This document shows positions 10,472 to 50,333 of a stretch of DNA of 64,000 nt, one piece after another. Positions within the stretch are counted from its first letter, which is position 1; the number at the start of each line of letters is the position of its first letter. A program made the translations under genes and the position numbers. The notes under the pieces are model-generated. The model searched no databases. It worked only from the letters and a program-made list of their open reading frames with translations, and was not told the origin of the DNA. Source of the stretch: an uncultured Phycisphaerales bacterium (GTDB taxonomy: Bacteria; Planctomycetota; Phycisphaerae; Tepidisphaerales; Tepidisphaeraceae); assembly GCA_963844715.1 (NCBI GenBank), contig CAWJPJ010000006.1, forward strand, positions 576,001 to 640,000. The letters are read 5' to 3'.

Positions 10472-11518
10472 ATGGCAATGCCCAATATCCCCAACGTCGA
10501 TCCCCAGATTCAGGCCGCCTGCGACCAGTTCCGCAAGGACTACCGCGCCCTTCAATCCGAGATCGGCAAAATCATCGTCGGCCACCAGGATATCGTCGAC
10601 GGCGTCCTCACCTGCCTATTCGTCGGCGGCCACGCCCTCCTCGAAGGCGTCCCCGGCCTGGGCAAAACCGCGCTCATTCGCGCCCTCGCCGACGCGCTTG
10701 ATCTCAAATTCAGCCGCATCCAGTTCACCCCCGACCTCATGCCCGCCGACGTCATCGGCACCAACGTCATCATGGAAGACGCGCAGGGCCACAGAAATTT
10801 CACCTTCATGCCCGGTCCCATCTTCGCCCAGATCGTCCTGGCCGACGAAATCAACCGAGCAACCCCCAAAACCCAATCCGCCCTCCTCGAAGCCATGCAG
10901 GAGCAGCAAGTCACCGCCGGCGGCCAAATGCGAAAACTCGAAAAACCCTTCTTCGTCATGGCCACCCAAAACCCGCTGGAGCAGGAAGGCACCTATCCTC
11001 TCCCTGAAGCCCAGCTGGACCGCTTCTTCTTCAAGCTGCTGGTCCAATACAGCGGCCGCGACGAACTGAAACAAATTCTCGACCGCACCACCACCAATCA
11101 AAAGGCCGAAGTCAAAGCCGTCATCAACTCCCAGCGCATCCTCGAACATCAGGAACTGGTCAAGCGCGTCCTCGTCGCCCCGCACGTCCAGGACTATGCC
11201 ATCCGCGTCGTCCTCGCCACACATCCCCAGGGCATCTATGCCGTAGGCATGACCAACCAGTTCCTCAGATTCGGCGCCAGCCCCCGCGCCGCCCAGGCCA
11301 TCACCCTGGCAAGCAAAGTCCGAGCACTGCTCGATGGCCGTTTCCACACCAGCTTTCAGGATGTCAAAGACATCGCCATCCCCGCCATGCGCCACAGAAT
11401 CATCCTGAATTTCGAAGGCGAAGCCGAAGGAATCACGACGGACATGATCCTGGAAAAAGTCCTCGCCGAAACCCCGCAAACGATCGAGGACGATTCGCCG
11501 GCAATGGTACGAAAGTAA
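10472..11518 (+). CDS. moxR: MoxR family AAA+ ATPase
   Basis: GVPGLGKT Walker A, RIQFTPDLMPAD, LADEINRATPKTQSALLEAM, ATQNPLEQEGTYPLPEAQLDRF. Confidence 0.95.
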   Translation: MAMPNIPNVDPQIQAACDQFRKDYRALQSEIGKIIVGHQDIVDGVLTCLFVGGHALLEGVPGLGKTALIRALADALDLKFSRIQFTPDLMPADVIGTNVIMEDAQGHRNFTFMPGPIFAQIVLADEINRATPKTQSALLEAMQEQQVTAGGQMRKLEKPFFVMATQNPLEQEGTYPLPEAQLDRFFFKLLVQYSGRDELKQILDRTTTNQKAEVKAVINSQRILEHQELVKRVLVAPHVQDYAIRVVLATHPQGIYAVGMTNQFLRFGASPRAAQAITLASKVRALLDGRFHTSFQDVKDIAIPAMRHRIILNFEGEAEGITTDMILEKVLAETPQTIEDDSPAMVRK

Positions 11519-11523
11519 AGGCG

Positions 11524-11652
11524 GAAACCCGAATGACGAAACCCGAAACCAGAATCAAACCCGAAATCCGAATGAGCCATAGCACGCGCAGCAGTCATGG
11601 CTCATTCTGGTTTCGGATTTGATTCGGATTTCTGGTTTCGGGTTTCGGATTT
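11524..11652. repeat. Heptamer-periodic palindromic element, copy A (empty, subtype 1)
   Basis: GAAACCC GAATGAC GAAACCC GAAACCA GAATCAAACCC GAAATCC GAATGAG CCAT, short spacer, then the inverted arm ATGG CTCATTC TGGTTTC GGATTTGATTC GGATTTC TGGTTTC GGGTTTC GGATTT. Confidence 0.9.
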
Positions 11653-11670
11653 ACGCGGAGGATTACCGCA

Positions 11671-12897
11671 ATGAAGAACCCATCGCTCCCCCTGGCTTGC
11701 CTGCTACTCCTGTCCATCTGCCCGCGTCTAATCGCCGCCACCCTCTTCGTCTCCCCCGACGGCCAACCGGGCTCCCCCGGAACCCAACAAAATCCCCTGC
11801 CTAGTCTCGTCGACGCCGCCGCCATCGCCCAGCCCGGCGATACCATCCAAATGCTCCCCGGCGTCTATCACGAACCCAAAACCGTCAACCTCTCCACCAA
11901 AGCCACCGAACAATCCCCCATCCACGTCACCGCCGACGTCGGCAATCCGGTCGTCCTCGACTTCTCCGCACAACCCGAAGACCGTGCCCACTCCATAGGC
12001 GTCGAACTCTCCGGCAACTACTGGTTTCTCACCAGCATCGAAGTCACCCACGCCGGAAGCTTCGGTTTCCACATCACCGGCAGTCACAACACCCTCGATC
12101 ACTGCATCTCCGCCGAGAATCGCAACAGCGGCACCCAGATCGAAACCAACGGCAGTTACACCCTCGTCGTCGACTGCCAGTCCTATCGCAACTTCGATCC
12201 CAAATCCTACGGCGAGGACGCCGACGGCTTCACCGCTAAGCACAAAATCGGCCCCGGCAATGAATTCCTCCGCTGCCGCTCCTATCAAAACGCCGACGAC
12301 GGCTTCGATTTCTGGATGGCCCCCGAGCCTATTCTGACCATCGACTGCGTCTCCTACCGCAACGGCTACAACATCTGGGGAATCTGGCCCTATGAAGGCG
12401 ACGGCAACGGCTTCAAGTTCGGCGGCAACTACGTCGCCGTCGCCCACGTCTGCCGCGGCTGCGTCTCTATCGAAAATCCCCTCGACGGCTTCGACCAAAA
12501 CCACAACATCGGACCCGTCACCGTCGAAGACTGCATCGCCATCCGCTGCGGAAAAGGCTTCTCCTTTCCAGAAGTCCCCCGCGCGGGACAAGTCGTCCTA
12601 AGAAACTGCACCAGCTTCGGCTGCCAAAACGTCCTCGAACCCGACATCGTCACAGAAAACTGCCACTGGTACCCAGACGTCCAGGCAGGCGTCCTCGGCC
12701 CCCTCCCCCTCCCCGGCCACCGAGACATCCCCGGCGCCGGCGCAGTTCCCACAACCGAGCCGTCCCCCATCATCGTCCCAGCCGAAGCCCCCGAATGGGG
12801 CTATCCGAACGATACGCCCAAACGCCGAGACCCCGAACTAGCCGACACCCGCGCCTCGGGCCAGGCAACGCGCCCCTCCGATTATCCGAACCCTTAA
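11671..12897 (+). CDS. Secreted right-handed beta-helix polysaccharide lyase, PL9 (PelL-like)
   Basis: Signal peptide, EDADGFTAK, NADDGFD and GDGNGFKFGG motifs; GGAGGA RBS. Confidence 0.8.
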   Translation: MKNPSLPLACLLLLSICPRLIAATLFVSPDGQPGSPGTQQNPLPSLVDAAAIAQPGDTIQMLPGVYHEPKTVNLSTKATEQSPIHVTADVGNPVVLDFSAQPEDRAHSIGVELSGNYWFLTSIEVTHAGSFGFHITGSHNTLDHCISAENRNSGTQIETNGSYTLVVDCQSYRNFDPKSYGEDADGFTAKHKIGPGNEFLRCRSYQNADDGFDFWMAPEPILTIDCVSYRNGYNIWGIWPYEGDGNGFKFGGNYVAVAHVCRGCVSIENPLDGFDQNHNIGPVTVEDCIAIRCGKGFSFPEVPRAGQVVLRNCTSFGCQNVLEPDIVTENCHWYPDVQAGVLGPLPLPGHRDIPGAGAVPTTEPSPIIVPAEAPEWGYPNDTPKRRDPELADTRASGQATRPSDYPNP

Positions 12898-12900
12898 AGC

Positions 12901-13029
12901 GAAACCCGAATGACGAAACCCGAAACCAGAATCAAGCCCGAAACCAGAATGAGCCATGATTGCGCGCATGCTATGGCCCATTCTGGTTTCGGATTTGATT
13001 CGGATTTCTGGTTTCTGGTTTCTGGTTTC
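12901..13029. repeat. Heptamer-periodic palindromic element, copy B (empty, subtype 1, spacer inverted relative to A and D)
   Basis: Left arm nearly identical to A. Spacer CCATGATTGCGCGCATGCTATGG has reverse complement CCATAGCATGCGCGCAATCATGG, close to the spacers of A and D. Confidence 0.9.
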
Positions 13030-13043
13030 CGCCCGGGGGCATC

Positions 13044-13937
13044 ATGACCCAAGTCACGTCTTCGAAACTTTTGGATTCCGCCTTCATGGCGCGCCTCGAC
13101 CAACTCGACATCATTTCGCGCAAAATGCTCGCCGGGAAAATGAAGGGCGAGCGCCGCTCCAAGCGCCGCGGCCAATCCGTCGAATTCGCCGACTACCGCA
13201 ACTACGTCGTCGGCGACGACCTCCGCTTCATCGACTGGAACATCTACGCCCGCCTAGACAAACTCTTTCTCAAACTTTTCCTCGAGGAAGAAGACCTCTC
13301 CCTCTACATCCTCCTCGACGTCAGCAAAAGCTGCGACTTCGGCGATCCCAACAAAGCCGTCTACATGAAACAAGTCGCCGCCGCCCTCGGCTACATCGGC
13401 CTGGTCAATTACAACCGCGTCCACATCAGCGCCATGTCCGAAGGCATCGTCGCCGAAACCGGCGCCCTCCGCGGCCGCCGCCGCATCGCCCAGATGATCG
13501 ACTTCATCGCCAATCTAAAACCAAAAGGCGCCAGCCATTTCTCCGAAGCCTGCAAACGATTCGCCCTGGCCCACCGCCAAAAAGGCGTCTGCGTCGTCCT
13601 CTCCGACTTCTTCGTAAAAGAAGGCTTCCAATCAGGCCTACGCTACGTCGCCGGCGGGAAATACGACCTCTTCTGCGTCCAGGTCCTCTCCCCCCAGGAA
13701 ATCCAACCCGAGTTAACCGGCGATTTAAAATTGAAGGACCTCGAAGACGCCGACACAGCCGAGGTATCGATCACCCAGCCGCTGATGGACAGATACAAGA
13801 AGAATCTGAATGCGTATTGTCTGTCGCTAAAAGAATATCTCACTCGCCGAGGCGGCACCTATCTGTTCAGCAGCACGGCCGTGCCGTTCGATACGCTGGT
13901 GTTGAACTATTTGCGCGAAAGAGGACTGCTTGGGTAA
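13044..13937 (+). CDS. DUF58 family protein (MoxR-associated)
   Basis: GQSVEFADYRNYVVGDDLRFIDWNIYAR, LLDVSKS, VLSDF. Confidence 0.92.
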   Translation: MTQVTSSKLLDSAFMARLDQLDIISRKMLAGKMKGERRSKRRGQSVEFADYRNYVVGDDLRFIDWNIYARLDKLFLKLFLEEEDLSLYILLDVSKSCDFGDPNKAVYMKQVAAALGYIGLVNYNRVHISAMSEGIVAETGALRGRRRIAQMIDFIANLKPKGASHFSEACKRFALAHRQKGVCVVLSDFFVKEGFQSGLRYVAGGKYDLFCVQVLSPQEIQPELTGDLKLKDLEDADTAEVSITQPLMDRYKKNLNAYCLSLKEYLTRRGGTYLFSSTAVPFDTLVLNYLRERGLLG

Positions 13938-13940
13938 GCT

Positions 13941-14410
13941 AAATCCGAAACCAGAAACCCGAATGACGAATCAAACCCGAAATCCGAATGACTCAACGGC
14001 CCCGCGCGGCGGAAAGAAGTTCGACCTTGAGGAGCGAACCGCCCGCTTTGGAAAGGCAATCATCGAGTTCGCACGGAAAGTGCCGCTTGATCCCATCACC
14101 GATCCGCTAATTCGCCAACTCGTTCGAAGCGGCACGAGCATCGGCGCAAATTACTGCGAGGCGGACGATGCGGAATCGAAGAAAGACTTTCATCACAAAA
14201 TCGGCATCTGCCGCAAAGAGTCGCGAGAAACAAAATACTGGTTGAGGATGATCGCCGCCGCCAACAAAGATTGTCGCGCCGACGCTCGCATTCTTTGGCA
14301 AGAAGCAAAGGAGCTAAACCTAATTTTCGGCGCCATCCGCCGGCGCAATTGACCTTCGGTCATTCGGATTTCGGATTTGATTCGTCATTCGGATTTCTGG
14401 TTTCTGGTTT
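13941..14410 (+). mobile_element. Copy C: 52-bp heptameric inverted arms enclosing a four-helix-bundle gene (putative gene-bearing element)
   Basis: Left arm 13941-13992 and right arm 14359-14410 match at 48/52 as an inverted repeat. Mobility is inferred from dispersed empty copies. Confidence 0.6.
13963..14352 (+). CDS. Four helix bundle protein (23S rRNA IVP / Avd-like family)
   Basis: FDLEERTARF, QLVRSGTSIGANYCEA, SKKDFHHKIGICRKESRETKYWL. The ATG lies inside a GAATGAC heptamer. Confidence 0.9.
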   Translation: MTNQTRNPNDSTAPRGGKKFDLEERTARFGKAIIEFARKVPLDPITDPLIRQLVRSGTSIGANYCEADDAESKKDFHHKIGICRKESRETKYWLRMIAAANKDCRADARILWQEAKELNLIFGAIRRRN

Positions 14411-14416
14411 GTAGAC

Positions 14417-16438
14417 ATGCCTCACTTCCTAAACACCCTCCCCGCCGCCATCGCCGCCGCAACGGCCATCCCTCTCTTAGTACTTTTATATTTCCTAAAA
14501 CTCCGCCGCCGCGAACAACCAGTCTCCTCCACGCTCCTCTGGAAAAAAGCCATCCAGGACCTACAAGTCAACGCCCCCTTCCAAAAGCTGCGCCGAAACC
14601 TTTTGTTGCTCTTACAACTCCTCATCCTCGCAGCACTCGTGCTCGCTCTTTCGCGCCCGGTGGCCAACTACACACCCGGCGCCGGTCCCCGAACCATCAT
14701 TTTGATCGATCGATCCGCCCCCATGTCCGCGACCGACATACCAAATGGCCGCACTAGATTGGACGAAGCCAAAAAACGCGCAGCCGACCTCGTCAAAACC
14801 CTCGGCCGCAATGGCGAAGCCATGGTCATCGCCTTTGACGACACCGCCCAAACCATCCAGCCTTTCACTAGCGACATCCCCGCCCTTCTCAACGGCATCG
14901 ACTCGATCCAACCCACCGATCGTCTCACCGATCTCGAGCCCGCCTACCGCCTCGCCAACGCGCAAGCCGCGTTCACCTCCGGCTATTCCGCGCGCAACCG
15001 CGTGCCGCCCGACGTCTATCTCTTTTCCGACGGCCGCGCCCACGACGCCGACAAGGCCAGCGTCGACGGCATCCTTCATTTCGAGCAGATCGGCTCCGAC
15101 ACGGCCCACAACATCGCCATCGTCGCCATGAACGCGAAGCGCGATTACCAGCAGCCGACGCACGTTCAGGTCTTTGCGCGTCTGGCCAATTATGGCCCCG
15201 ATCCCGTGGACGGCGTCCAGGTCCAGCTCAGCGTCGACGGCATGGTCCGCAGCATCGCCACCGTCAATCTTCTCCCCGAACGCTTTAACGACGATCAGCG
15301 CCGCGCGGCCATCGCCGCCGGCTTCTCCCCGCGCGACAGCATCGAATTCCCCGAACTCGAACTAACCGGCTCGGCAGTGGTCAAAGTCGATCAACTCGCC
15401 ACGGATAAAGACTCCCTCACCAGCGACGATTCCGCCTACGCCGTCGTCCCCCCTCCCAAAATCCTGGCCGTCCTCCTCGTCACCGACGGCAATTTCTTTC
15501 TCGAACGCGGCCTGGAAAGCCAGCGCCTCAAAGTTTACGACCGCATGTACCCCCAGGAATATCTCCAGCTCCCCCAAGCCACCGGCGGCGGAAAGAAGCT
15601 CCCCAAACCCTACGACGTCATCGTCTTCGACCGCGTCAATGACCTAAAAGCCCAGGATGTCCCCAAACAAGGCGCAGCCGTCTATTTCGGCTGCATCCCT
15701 CCCGGCCTGAAACTTCAAGTCGCCACCGACGTCACAGGCCAACCCAAAATCGACGAAGACAACGGCGTCCTAGATTGGAAACGCGACCACCCCATCCTCC
15801 GCCATATCAATCTCAACAAGCTTTACGTCGCCCACGCCACCGAAATTATTCCGTCCATGGACTCCGAAGTCCTCGTCGACGGCACCAATTGCCCGCTGGT
15901 CGTACTCCATCGCGAAAACCAAGCCGTCCATCTCATCATTCCCTTCGACGTAATCGACAGCAATTGGCCTCTGAACTCCACCTTCCCCGTCTTCCTCTAC
16001 CAGACCCTGCAATTCATGGCCCTGGGCACAGACCTCGAACTTCGCCCCAGCTACGCCCCCGGCACAAGCCTCCGCATCGCCCGCAGCACCCTCGACAAAA
16101 TCGACCCCAAAATCCGCATCATCACCATCACCGGCCCGGCCGGAACCCTCACCGCGACGATTCCCCCCACAGGCGATTTCGTCCTCCCCCCGCTGAACAA
16201 AGTCGGCCTCTACACCACCGACCCCCCCATCCCCCAATACGAAAAAATCGCCGTGAACCTTCTGGACGACACCGAAAGCAACATCGAACCCACCGACGTA
16301 GCCCCCGGCTCCGCCGGCCAAGTCGCCCCCGCCGCCCCAACCGGCGCAAGAAAAGAACTATGGCGCTGGCTAGTCGCCGCCGCGATACCTCTGTTGCTAA
16401 TCGAATGGTGGGTCTACACCCGCCGCGTGCACCTGTAG
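14417..16438 (+). CDS. BatA-domain / VWA protein
   Basis: IPLLVLLYFLKLRRR...VSSTLLW...LLLLLQLL BatA N-terminus, IDRSAPM and FSDG VWA motifs, C-terminal TM ending LIEWW. Confidence 0.9.
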   Translation: MPHFLNTLPAAIAAATAIPLLVLLYFLKLRRREQPVSSTLLWKKAIQDLQVNAPFQKLRRNLLLLLQLLILAALVLALSRPVANYTPGAGPRTIILIDRSAPMSATDIPNGRTRLDEAKKRAADLVKTLGRNGEAMVIAFDDTAQTIQPFTSDIPALLNGIDSIQPTDRLTDLEPAYRLANAQAAFTSGYSARNRVPPDVYLFSDGRAHDADKASVDGILHFEQIGSDTAHNIAIVAMNAKRDYQQPTHVQVFARLANYGPDPVDGVQVQLSVDGMVRSIATVNLLPERFNDDQRRAAIAAGFSPRDSIEFPELELTGSAVVKVDQLATDKDSLTSDDSAYAVVPPPKILAVLLVTDGNFFLERGLESQRLKVYDRMYPQEYLQLPQATGGGKKLPKPYDVIVFDRVNDLKAQDVPKQGAAVYFGCIPPGLKLQVATDVTGQPKIDEDNGVLDWKRDHPILRHINLNKLYVAHATEIIPSMDSEVLVDGTNCPLVVLHRENQAVHLIIPFDVIDSNWPLNSTFPVFLYQTLQFMALGTDLELRPSYAPGTSLRIARSTLDKIDPKIRIITITGPAGTLTATIPPTGDFVLPPLNKVGLYTTDPPIPQYEKIAVNLLDDTESNIEPTDVAPGSAGQVAPAAPTGARKELWRWLVAAAIPLLLIEWWVYTRRVHL

Positions 16439-16574
16439 GAAGTCCGAAACCCGAAACCACCCGCCGCGGCGGGCGAATCAAACCCGAATTCCGAATGACC
16501 CATAGCATGCGCGCGGTCATGGCTCATTCTGGTTTCGGATTTGATTCGGATTTCGGGTTTCGGATTTCAGATTT
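16439..16574. repeat. Heptamer-periodic palindromic element, copy D (subtype 1) with an extra 14-bp palindrome in the left arm
   Basis: Same arms as A and B; spacer CCATAGCATGCGCGCGGTCATGG; insert CCCGCCGCGGCGGG at 16460-16473. Confidence 0.9.
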
Positions 16575-16610
16575 GAACCCCGTCCCCTCCCCATATATAA
16601 CCCCCACCCA

Positions 16611-17220: not shown

Positions 17221-17349
17221 GAAATCCGAAACCAGAAACCCGAAACCAGAATCAAATCCGAGATCAGAATGACCGAAGGGCACCCGACGCGATTCGGTCA
17301 TTTGGGCATTCGGATTTGATTCTGATTTCGGGTTTCGGGTTTCGGATTT
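17221..17349. repeat. Heptamer-periodic palindromic element, copy E (empty, subtype 2)
   Basis: GAAATCC GAAACCA GAAACCC GAAACCA GAATCAAATCC ... GAATGAC, spacer CGAAGGGCACCCGACGCGATTCG, inverted arm overlapping the TAA of the next (minus-strand) gene. Confidence 0.9.
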
Positions 17350-17915
17350 TATTTCAGCAGATGATGCGTTATCAGCGCATACGCCGTAACCGCCACTCCA
17401 ATCGCCGCCGCCACCACGCCGCCGTAGAAAGCCGACCGTCTTTTCGTCAGCGCCGCCACCGACGCCAGCGCGATCCCCATCTGCACCGCCATTCCCCCGT
17501 ATGAAAGCAAATCCTTCTCCGACATCCGCCGAAACGCCCTGGCCAGAAAATCCTCCCGCTCGTCCTCCAACGCCTTGGCCTGCGTCCGCAGCAGCGGCTC
17601 GCGCGTCCGCGCCTGCTGATCGAAATCCGTCATCTCTTTTCGCTGCGCATCGGTGATCGAGCTACCCGAAGCCAGTTGCGACTCGACGATCCGTGCCTTG
17701 ATGCTATTGGCCTGAAACTCCGCCCATTCATCCGAAGCCTGCGCCTGCTTGAGCACCGCCTGGTTGCTGAAATAGATCGCCTCGTTGGAAAGATTCGTGC
17801 ACCGCACAGTGAGATACCCGCCCAGTGCCGCCAGCACGCCCGTGAGCAGGGCCACATATTTCATCCAGCGCGGCGCCGTCGGATCAGCCGCGGCTTTGGC
17901 CGTCAGTTGTGTCAT
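17349..17915 (-). CDS. DUF4337 family membrane protein
   Basis: VALLTGVLAAL, QASDEWAEFQANSIK, QMGIALASVAALT. Confidence 0.75.
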   Translation of the reverse strand: MTQLTAKAAADPTAPRWMKYVALLTGVLAALGGYLTVRCTNLSNEAIYFSNQAVLKQAQASDEWAEFQANSIKARIVESQLASGSSITDAQRKEMTDFDQQARTREPLLRTQAKALEDEREDFLARAFRRMSEKDLLSYGGMAVQMGIALASVAALTKRRSAFYGGVVAAAIGVAVTAYALITHHLLK

Positions 17916-36460: not shown

Positions 36461-37237
36461 AAAAAGGTGACATCCACCATTGTTGACGCGTTCCGCGGTT
36501 TGGGTTAGGTTTTTTCTATGCCTCGCACTTCTCGTGCCGCGGTGGGCGGCGTGGTTTATCACGTGCTCAACCGTGGCAACGGCCGCATGAAAATCTTCCG
36601 CAAGCCGGGCGATTATGAGGTGTTCGTGGACCTGATGATCGCCGCCAAGCAGCGGGCCGCCGTTGAGATATTCGGATTCTGTTTGATGCCCAATCATTGG
36701 CATCTGGTTTTGCGTCCGCGCCGCGATCGGGATTTGGCCTCATATCTGTCCTGGCTCACCAATACCCACGTGAAGCGTTATCGCGCTCACTACCGCCGCA
36801 CGAGCGGGCACCTTTACCAGGGGCGTTACAAGAGTTTCGCGGTGGAAGAGGACGCGTATTTGCTCACGCTGCTGCGCTACGTCGAGGCCAATCCGCTGCG
36901 CGGCAAGCTCGTCAGGGGGGCCGAAGAATGGCGCTGGTCGAGTCTGGGGTGCGACGCGAAAGTATCCAGGGCGCTGCTGGACGCTTGGCCGATCGAGCGG
37001 CCGCGGAATTGGAAATCGCTGGTGAACGAGGCGATCGCCCCAGGCGAAATGAAGCGGCTAAACCAGAGTTTCAAACGGGATCGGCCGCTGGGAAGCGCGA
37101 TGTGGACTATGCAAATGGTGCAGCGGATGGGATTGCAATACACGCTCAATCCGCGTGGGCGGCCCAGGAAGACGGGAACGAAGGCGTGATTTGATGGATG
37201 TCACCTTTTTTATCTGATTTGATGGATGTCACCTTTG
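36461..37237 (+). mobile_element. RAYT-like element bounded by AAAGGTGACATCCA inverted repeats
   Basis: Perfect 16-bp inverted repeat at 36461-36476 and 37195-37210, plus a tandem duplicate at 37215-37236. Confidence 0.7.
36518..37189 (+). CDS. REP-associated tyrosine transposase (HUH Y1)
   Basis: YHVLNRGNGR, FCLMPNHWHLVL, GHLYQGRY, RYVEANP, WRWSS, RGRP. Confidence 0.92.
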   Translation: MPRTSRAAVGGVVYHVLNRGNGRMKIFRKPGDYEVFVDLMIAAKQRAAVEIFGFCLMPNHWHLVLRPRRDRDLASYLSWLTNTHVKRYRAHYRRTSGHLYQGRYKSFAVEEDAYLLTLLRYVEANPLRGKLVRGAEEWRWSSLGCDAKVSRALLDAWPIERPRNWKSLVNEAIAPGEMKRLNQSFKRDRPLGSAMWTMQMVQRMGLQYTLNPRGRPRKTGTKA

Positions 37238-50203: not shown

Positions 50204-50333
50204 AAAACCAGAATTCCGAAACCCGAAATCCGAATCAAACCCGAATGACCAAATGACCCAATCGGCGGAACGGCCCTTCGGTCATTCGGATTTCGGATTT
50301 GACTCTGGTTTCGGATTTCTGGTTTCGGGTTTC
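50204..50333. repeat. Heptamer-periodic palindromic element, copy F (empty, subtype 2)
   Basis: Same arms as the other copies. Shares CCTTCGGTCATTCGGATTTCGGATTTGA exactly with the 3' side of copy C, and starts 2 nt after the pckG stop. Confidence 0.9.

Follow-up and report, generated by a model that had tools for sequence, protein, structure and literature searches.

Among the closest described relatives of the element reported here are the intervening sequences (IVSs) of 23S rRNA that carry an open reading frame (ORF). In Coxiella burnetii, according to PMC4990558, the IVS at helix 45 forms a 28-bp stem with an S23p ORF in its loop and is cleaved by RNase III, while three to four tandem GACAGAT heptamers, in a copy number that varies between strains, are located ahead of the ATG. 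The same source cites ORF-bearing 23S IVSs for Leptospira, Xanthomonas and Brucella, and the function of S23p is still regarded as unknown there. Here we analysed a 64,000-nt stretch of DNA (the window, C6:576001-640000) from the genome of an uncultured Phycisphaerales bacterium (8 contigs, 4.55 Mb, 85% complete), in which a gene of the same family, PF05635 (hereafter the IVP gene), is enclosed by inverted arms of 7-nt units between the DUF58 and BatA genes. Very probably, this unit is an IVS-type cassette located outside rRNA, with the PF05635 gene in the loop of a stem that is made of compound 7-nt arrays.

Heptameric repeats have been described separately, including GGGAATC in Xanthomonas and GGGGA(C/T)T in Nostoc, mostly in about four units (Rehm et al. 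2015, PMC4692102), and TAACTGA in Beggiatoaceae, cyanobacteria and Bacteroidetes (MacGregor 2015, PMC4679880). Like the arms of the present unit, these are arrays of 7-nt units located between genes, and those of Xanthomonas often form convergent inverted pairs, the place being kept between species and the length changing (PMC4692102). G-quadruplexes or sites bound by an unknown regulator are considered in the two papers; since the terms 23S, S23 and four-helix are absent from both texts, no gene is tied to the repeats there. Genes of the 23S_rRNA_IVP family have also been found between cas genes (PMC3936711). In a literature search with subscription journals and supplements outside its range, no link of the PF05635 family to heptamer arms was found, either in general or outside rRNA. 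In the literature covered, heptamers are mentioned for a single IVS, that of Coxiella.

The unit at the DUF58-BatA junction and its protein

The features of the locus are as follows.

13941..13992, + strand: 5' arm, made of outer GAA-NNNN heptamers, the 11-nt hinge unit GAATCAAACCC and the inner units GAAATCC GAATGAC; it includes the start codon of the gene
13963..14352 (stop codon included), + strand: PF05635 (23S_rRNA_IVP / S23p) four-helix-bundle gene, 129 aa, assigned by Pfam, phmmer and structure model
14359..14410, + strand: 3' arm, complementary to the 5' arm in reverse orientation at 48/52 positions; the BatA start codon is located 6 nt beyond its end
13044..13937, + strand: DUF58 gene (PF01882, E 2e-36), the upstream flank; its stop is located 3 nt ahead of the 5' arm
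14417..16438, + strand: BatA/VWA gene, the downstream flank, from gene calls and Pfam

The 5' arm reads (T)AAATCC GAAACCA GAAACCC GAATGAC GAATCAAACCC GAAATCC GAATGAC. Each arm is 52 nt long, 366 nt separate the 5' from the 3' arm, and 48 of the 52 positions (92%) are complementary. The ATG of the IVP gene is located within the GAATGAC unit at 13961-13967, and a TTG at 13930 is the sole alternative in-frame start upstream of the Pfam match. On all of these points an earlier note made from the letters alone, which had described 48/52 inverted arms of 52 bp composed of heptamers and an 11-nt unit, a 129-aa gene enclosed by them, an ATG supplied by a GAATGAC unit and a place between DUF58 and BatA-VWA, was correct. 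Its description of the unit as transposase-free also held: no transposase was found within the unit, so that the cognate transposase of a transposon or miniature inverted-repeat transposable element (MITE) is missing from it.

When the 479-nt unit was folded as RNA, the arms were fully paired in the computed structure (-192 kcal/mol, z score -7.15), and none of 100 shuffled sequences equalled this value. The unit thus shares with the Coxiella-type 23S IVS the protein family and the terminal inverted repeats able to form a stem with the ORF in its loop. It differs in that its arms are longer (52 nt) and compound, and in that it is located between protein-coding genes of an operon instead of in an rRNA helix; an rRNA IVS with ACTAGAA arms is present elsewhere in the same genome. 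The G+C content at third codon positions is 0.61 in the IVP gene against 0.73-0.83 in the neighbouring genes. Farther upstream of DUF58, a MoxR ATPase gene is located at 10472-11518.

The protein is, on the basis of its match and its structure model, a member of the four-helix-bundle S23p/IVP family. It matches PF05635 over residues 22-117 with an E-value of 7.4e-14 and 52.3 bits (cut-off 33.8), and phmmer matches it to 2rld_A (E 5e-13). The AlphaFold model (predicted local distance difference test, pLDDT, 89.1) contains helices at 22-39, 46-68, 73-100 and 102-128. Its top Foldseek matches are 2rld (E 1e-5, template modelling score, TM, by target 0.85) and 2gsc (TM 0.84), followed by the Avd chains of the ribonucleoprotein of a diversity-generating retroelement (DGR) and free Avd (8ube, 8ub7 and 4dwl, TM by target 0.66-0.77), to which the sequence identity is only 14-15%. 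The fold shared with Avd, as stated in the earlier note, is therefore borne out by the model, with 2RLD and 2GSC matched ahead of Avd. For both of these solved homologs five chains, A-E, are listed, and a homopentamer is quoted for Xcc0516 in PMC4990558. The family motif is GxxRxxxSxxxNxxE (PMC3936711); the corresponding region here, QLVRSGTSIGANYCE, contains RxxxSxxxNxxE with Q in place of G, and we counted the motif as present. In alignments of IVP proteins, Q52, N63, E66 and E89 are invariant and S59 is nearly invariant; nine references whose arm-encoded N-terminal part contains stops were excluded from the structure alignment.

Arms and gene in paralogs, homologs and orthologous junctions

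PF05635 gave nine matches at seven loci of the genome, and all seven loci, as the earlier note had suggested checking, carry flanking arrays with a period of 7-8 nt. The unit differs from locus to locus, and the arms are inverted at four of the seven.

Studied locus: unit GAAACCN/GAATGAC, inverted
C8:462821-463273: unit AGTTGCC, inverted, 31-nt arms
C7:480142-480728: unit GGTGTGAA, inverted
C4:133035-133473: unit ACTAGAA, inverted; within large-subunit (LSU) rRNA
C5:92575-92970 (locus region 92508-93040): GATTAAGA-like arrays, on the same strand at both sides
C8:124871-125401 (region 124564-125528): GAAATCT/GAAATTT array upstream, and a directly oriented one within an extended ORF (186 aa)
C4:89907-90173: unit not named, one-sided hairpin

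The unit at C4:133035-133473, with its PF05635 gene in two frames, lies within the LSU rRNA gene, some 1229 nt away from the point where the Rfam match starts, and is therefore a true IVS near the helix 45 site reported for Coxiella. On either side of the paralog at C8:124871-125401 the 3' end of a histidine-kinase-like gene is present (137-138 nt, 118 identical between the two copies), upstream as the terminus of an intact kinase gene and downstream as an orphan fragment.

Homologs in other genomes were surveyed with two peptide patterns of this one subfamily in one genome per species. At least 604 stretches were found, at least 575 of them were confirmed, and the best 80 loci were kept, two of which had too little flank, leaving 78 usable loci. 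The best 80 loci, 51-71% identical, come from Planctomycetota, Verrucomicrobiota, many Patescibacteria, Cloacimonadota, Acidobacteriota and others, and only five of them are located at the DUF58-BatA junction, the genomic sites being otherwise unrelated. At 64 of the 78 loci the inverted match between the flanks exceeded the maximum of 390 shuffles. Shuffles were preferred to a null of mismatched flank pairs (null maximum 41; 14 of the 78 loci above its 99th percentile), which is uninformative because the arms of different loci resemble each other. Among 61 5' arms of at least 20 nt, the best self-match was at a lag of 7 in 47 cases, 9 in 12 cases and 11 or 12 in two. Most of the surveyed homologs thus carry inverted arms, mostly 7-nt periodic, which contradicts the lack of such arms in homologs that the earlier note had named as refuting. 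Related units, including GAATGAC, TAATGAC and CTAATTT/CTAATTGAC, occur across phyla, and the AATCAA hinge recurs. AAT is the commonest 7-spaced core (72/158 flanks); the cores are kept across phyla while the spacers are variable, and the arms of the subfamily are related in phyla of very different G+C content.

In the set of 41 related genomes, the net number of four-core GAA arrays is 20 or more in 9 of the 12 genomes that have the subfamily, against 6 of the 25 where it was not found (Fisher p 0.005, the genomes being kin and not independent; within the family 8/10 against 5/13, p 0.09). The repeats are therefore associated with the gene but do not depend on its presence.

The history of the junction was followed through the DUF58 orthologs present in 35 of the 41 genomes (genomes are labelled G and loci L). 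Thirty loci were taken, 20 with BatA within 1.5 kb, the 10 without it being set aside; five further junctions from named records brought the total to 25. One record, G004, is flagged as unpublished and contributes one junction state and one tree row, on which no conclusion rests. Nine of the 25 junctions (G000, G001, G002, G021 and L040-L044) contain an intact IVP gene of the subfamily with GAATGAC/GAAAYYN arms and hinge. At one (G013, L021) the IVP gene is internally deleted between its arms, at another (G009, L034) a 212-nt remnant consists of GAAACCN arms around shreds of the gene, and at a third (G005, L015) the same junction is occupied by an IVP of another subfamily with GTGCTGA arms. 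Nine are short or overlapping, including those of three outgroup families (L036-L038), in which the genes overlap by 1-4 nt, and those of G003 (14 nt) and G004 (17 nt). The remaining four hold other inserts, two of which are a gene-less hairpin of another unit beside an extra gene. In these two, L027 (G022) and L032 (G006), the hairpin units are GCAGATT and, with a loop of about 100 nt, CACGGAG, and the extra genes that follow are, by eye, one putatively macro-domain-like and one putatively hydrolase-like.

In a tree of the DUF58 plus BatA segment, a clade of 10 rows with support 97/95 contains 8 rows with the IVP gene. The cassette is thus an old resident of this junction, mostly vertically inherited and repeatedly lost or eroded. 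G019 (L013), the sister of IVP-bearing L040 (100/95), retains 50 nt with an AAATCCG-AAAA-CGGATTT mini-hairpin, which is, to judge by its form, the footprint of a deletion between the arms. Empty, occupied, decayed and replaced states were all seen at the orthologous junctions, where the earlier note had proposed a search for empty sites. Fixation in all relatives, which that note had taken as refuting, applies as far as the gene is long resident here; the empty, decayed and replaced junctions stand against it. Taken together, these comparisons show gene and arms to be inherited together and support the view that they form one unit, gained and lost as such. Of the mobile or self-propagating unit proposed in the earlier note, the unity of gene and arms is upheld, and no sign of recent movement was seen.

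Co-variation of the arms was examined in eight orthologous cassettes aligned at the hinge, with the 3' arms permuted among the 5' arms as the null. In the real combinations 83.0% of the arm cells are paired, against 77.7 +/- 2.2% in the permuted ones, and 13 of 1000 permutations reached the observed value; 16 of 53 arm columns contain at least two Watson-Crick pair types. For example, GAATGGC occurs in both arms of L042 and L043, and the hinge tail is ATTC in both arms of L044 against ACCC/ATCC in G000. Within this alignment the two arms are thereby shown to change in step. The start codon is located in the GAATGAC unit also in G001, G002 and G021 (MTN…). At 8 of 70 other loci checked, an in-frame stop is located in the arm-encoded extension, so that translation must begin further in at those eight. 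The median ratio of non-synonymous to synonymous substitution rates (dN/dS) is 0.14 for the IVP gene (19 of 36 pairs with dS defined and below 3) and 0.10 for the 3' part of DUF58 (35 pairs); as estimated from these codon comparisons, the IVP gene is shown to be under purifying selection.

Gene-less hairpins and heptamer arrays

The heptamer pattern GAAWYCNGAAWYCNGAAW, with one mismatch allowed, matches the window 36 times against 0.10 expected, a count reached by none of 100 shuffles. Besides the gene-bearing unit, the five gene-less copies of the arms reported in the earlier note were recovered in the window as hairpins of the same arm family (coordinates approximate, no strand assigned).

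11538..11653: five-core outer array, hinge, inner units and short loop
12915..13029: recognised from pattern matches
16439..16575: 5' arm contains a small nested G+C hairpin
17221..17350: located between convergent genes
50204..50333: shares its loop end CCTTCGGTCATTC with the 3' end of the gene-bearing unit

The gene-less copies have a common build, consisting of an outer GAA-NNNN array, a hinge, two to three inner units of the GAATGMC(C) type, a short loop and the mirror image. The hinge, TCAAAYCC, forms the 11-nt unit with the GAA ahead of it, and several gene-less loops end with CCTTCGGTCATTC, like the 3' end of the gene-bearing unit. In the hairpin at 16439-16575 a nested G+C-rich hairpin, CCCGCCGCGGCGGG, interrupts the 5' arm, an element within an element. 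A search of the hairpins against Rfam gave nothing at gathering score and only sub-threshold matches to miRNA-precursor models.

Two of these hairpins bracket a further gene. Between MoxR and DUF58, a Pel9A-like beta-helix gene (408 aa, 11671-12897) has near-identical GAAACCN/hinge hairpins on both sides. Among 35 loci it was found only in G000 and G002, and in most relatives MoxR is located directly upstream of DUF58; the whole gene may therefore have entered with or between two hairpins.

In the whole genome, the strict hinge pattern gave 25 pairs, consisting of one gene-bearing copy, one double listing and 23 gene-less copies. Period-7 arrays called by Tandem Repeats Finder at a score of 30 or more number 347, and 92 periodic hairpins of about 32 unit classes were called, several of these classes being without any PF05635 gene that bears the unit. 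By position, 48 hairpins are located between co-directional, 21 between convergent and 7 between divergent genes, with 7 inside crude gene calls, and hairpins begin 12 nt (median) downstream of a stop codon. Of 83 hairpins with a loop no longer than 150 nt, 73 have their purine-rich arm on the 5' side (7 reversed, 3 equal). This polarity holds, on either strand, in 29 of the 31 unit classes whose mean is unequal; descent of all copies within a single family would produce it, yet about 30 unit classes share it. At C7:1051320-1051716, 31-nt inverted arms of the AATGACG type enclose 335 nt without a PF05635 match, in which the longest ORF starts in the arm (MTNDES…) and continues into what appears to be another dispersed repeat; this is possibly a cassette with its gene replaced or destroyed.

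Explanations of the unit and their consequences

For the IVS-type explanation as a whole we put the probability at about 0.6. According to this explanation, the cassette would have entered the DUF58-BatA junction in an ancestor of the present Planctomycetota clade. It would be co-transcribed with the operon, because a scan of 13000-15000 detected neither a promoter- nor a terminator-like site (0 and 0). In the transcript the arms would pair into a stem of about 52 bp, concealing the start codon, and the stem would be a substrate of RNase III, as published for the rRNA IVSs; that RNase III processing of such a stem is in fact the way in which the unit works is a tentative part of the explanation, which we would sooner doubt than accept. 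The unit would hence be tolerated where neither cleavage nor a long stem is harmful, namely in rRNA helix loops and in gene junctions directly behind a stop codon. Transfer to other sites or genomes would be infrequent and would depend on a function encoded outside the unit. As the junctions of the relatives show, the cassette decays through internal deletion into gene-less hairpins or is deleted with a mini-hairpin left behind; the many gene-less hairpins would be decayed or derived copies.

A number of observations weigh against this explanation. No target-site duplication was detected at the unit, the bases outside the arms (…TAAGCT / GTAGAC…) not being direct repeats; the genome contains no second copy of this IVP gene, and none of the 25 junctions shows a sign of recent movement. 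Arms beyond the shuffle maximum are absent at 14 of the 78 loci, and GAA-core arrays are abundant in 6 of the 25 related genomes where the subfamily was not found. Among the seven paralogs, two carry arrays in direct orientation, which at the C5 locus makes a stem impossible, one has a one-sided hairpin, and four look broken by a frameshift or stop, for which error in long-read assembly could account. In the stems of the 48 hairpins between co-directional genes, 47 mismatches are of the sense-type and 55 of the antisense-type G-U, and without a sense-strand excess the complementarity may be kept at the DNA level or by copying from arm to arm. The proposal that the transcript folds into a long stem with the ORF in its loop thus agrees with the computed fold and gains nothing from G-U bias as a sign of selection for an RNA stem. 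For the same genome pairs, dN and dS of the IVP gene are both 2-4 times those of DUF58, dS being put at 2-3 times, though low codon bias could raise dS, and the IVP protein of G000 is 70-72% like those of L040-L044 and 65% like that of its sister G001; the IVP tree (84 rows) is too weakly resolved for either incongruence or exchange to be read from it. Sequencing runs with parts of 13000-15500 comprise four DNA runs from one soil-metagenome study and no RNA run. In contigs from these four runs no piece spans the unit and no empty-site allele was found. Apparent joints across the gene in these contigs turned out to be gene-less hairpins of the same arm family that map onto both arms, one of them carrying the loop of the window's own copy at 50204-50333.

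If the heptamer hairpins were independent repeats resembling repetitive extragenic palindromes (REPs), serving as 3'-end stabilisers or terminator-like structures, the IVP gene would be a mere passenger, a small gene that entered or was captured by one hairpin loop and has no functional connection with the arms. The 23 gene-less hinge hairpins against one gene-bearing copy favour this, as do the 92 periodic hairpins in about 32 unit classes, several lacking a PF05635 gene of that unit, and the closeness of hairpins to gene ends (median 12 nt after the stop; 21 convergent against 7 divergent). The arrays are also abundant in 6 of 25 relatives where the subfamily was not found and outlast the loss of the cassette in G019, and gene-free heptamer hairpins are known from Xanthomonas (PMC4692102). 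Systems such as REPs and the hairpin-forming REP doublets (REPINs) with the REP-associated tyrosine transposase (RAYT, Y1), or MITEs, are similar in having dispersed hairpins in tens of copies after gene ends, the gene-less copies here likewise outnumbering the gene-bearing one. They differ in that the arms here are internally periodic, the carried gene is not a transposase, there is no target duplication and the Y1 genes have no periodic hairpin nearby. A passenger would also not be expected to travel with related arms (AAT/GAA cores, AATCAA hinge) on the same subfamily across phyla, to have periodic flanks at all seven paralogs, each with another unit, or to bring different arms when a different IVP occupies the same junction (L015). 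The start codon within an arm unit in the orthologs, the L034 remnant of a gene-bearing copy decaying into a hairpin, and the greater frequency of arrays in genomes with the subfamily (9/12 against 6/25, p 0.005 among kin genomes; within the family p 0.09) point the same way, and we hold the passenger explanation to be unlikely. The lack of a sense-strand G-U bias, together with the strict polarity (73/83 purine-rich 5' arms), would suit an element that acts as DNA, in which the arms are hairpin or cruciform sites for a recombinase or transposase encoded elsewhere, or for hairpin-templated repair, the RNA stem being a by-product. The genome does contain five PF01797 (Y1 transposase) genes, the cassette was lost by between-arm deletion in L013, and one paralog is located between the 137-nt duplicated ends of a kinase gene. 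However, no periodic hairpin is located within 1.5 kb of any of the five Y1 genes, three of which have repeats of another kind beside them; neither a target-site duplication nor identical copies implying recent transposition were found, and no recombinase is linked to the best 80 loci, whose 600-nt flanks were not screened for one. We give such a DNA-level element a small chance. The Avd-like fold (8ube, 8ub7, 4dwl, TM 0.66-0.77) raises a further alternative, a DGR accessory protein, in which case the arms would serve a reverse transcriptase as RNA elements. Avd, a pentameric four-helix bundle, works in complex with a structured RNA according to bioRxiv 10.1101/2023.10.23.563531, and PF05635 is the commonest Pfam family near DGRs in one survey (PMC10053308). 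Since the 85%-complete genome has no RVT_1 (PF00078) match, the unit has no reverse transcriptase and no pair of template and variable repeats, and both sequence and fold are nearer to the free-standing S23p proteins 2RLD and 2GSC, this alternative is extremely improbable.

As to the Y1 genes themselves, two of equal score encode 223 aa, one in the window at 36518-37189 (C6:612518-613189) and one at C8:62810-63481, each with inverted repeats of the AAAAAGGTGACATCC type. The three others are located elsewhere, one of them flanked by GACTCCCGACCCC palindromes, and none of the five adjoins a heptamer hairpin.

An additional idea concerns the reading of the arrays. The evidence for a recognition of the arms by the protein, which the earlier note had suggested, is circumstantial. 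Period-7 arrays have a length mode of 31 nt (63 arrays at 31 nt; 97 of 347 at 30-32 nt, in 17 unit families), which corresponds to five 3-nt cores with variable 4-nt spacers. Exact 7-spaced chains of four, five and six cores number as follows.

GAA: 55, 55 and 3
AGT: 15, 45 and 1
AAT: 15, 15 and 1

The flanks of the subfamily in other phyla have a mode of 31-32 nt (21 of 75 arrays). HutP reads three XAG triplets with 4-nt spacers, i.e. at a 7-nt period, on each face, and binds two such sites that flank a terminator stem, which it opens (PMC2425495). The spaced triplets read by HutP and TRAP resemble the 3-nt cores (GAA, AAT, AGT) with variable 4-nt spacers seen here on both sides of a stem; the fold is unrelated, so that this is an analogy only. 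With the five-core limit, the pentameric homologs and the spacing of HutP, a ring that reads five cores is attractive, in which an IVP pentamer would bind the purine-rich 5' arm with one subunit per 3-nt core (GAA/AAT) at 7-nt spacing. The 5' place of the purine-rich arm, which is transcribed first, in 73 of 83 hairpins and the cores kept across phyla with variable spacers speak for this idea as well. Binding would then set the formation of the stem, and hence the translation of its own start codon and the cutting of the operon transcript, and the gene-less hairpins would be further sites of a genome-wide post-transcriptional network. In G018, however, arrays of six GAA cores are the commonest (four-, six- and seven-core patterns match 769, 205 and 30 times), and long arrays occur also in G021 and G007; five cores are thus not universal and may reflect common descent of the copies. 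We consider the ring reader a long shot. The hairpin family of G018 (GAAGTCA GAATGAT GAATGAT GAATTAT GAAGGAG GAA) has well over 100 arms, often in pairs about 65 nt apart, an expansion far larger than that in G000.

The IVS-type explanation has consequences beyond this locus. For annotation, short ORFs read from the arms (…NPKPETRN…) are repeat DNA, and start codons may be located within the stem. Bacterial genomes very commonly contain PF05635 or "four helix bundle protein" genes, and an excess of heptamers among the simple repeats of bacteria has long been noted without being explained. If true, the explanation would account for PF05635 genes amid operons, for example between cas genes. If gene and repeats belong together, the rRNA IVS would be a special case of a wider element that is present also in gene junctions.

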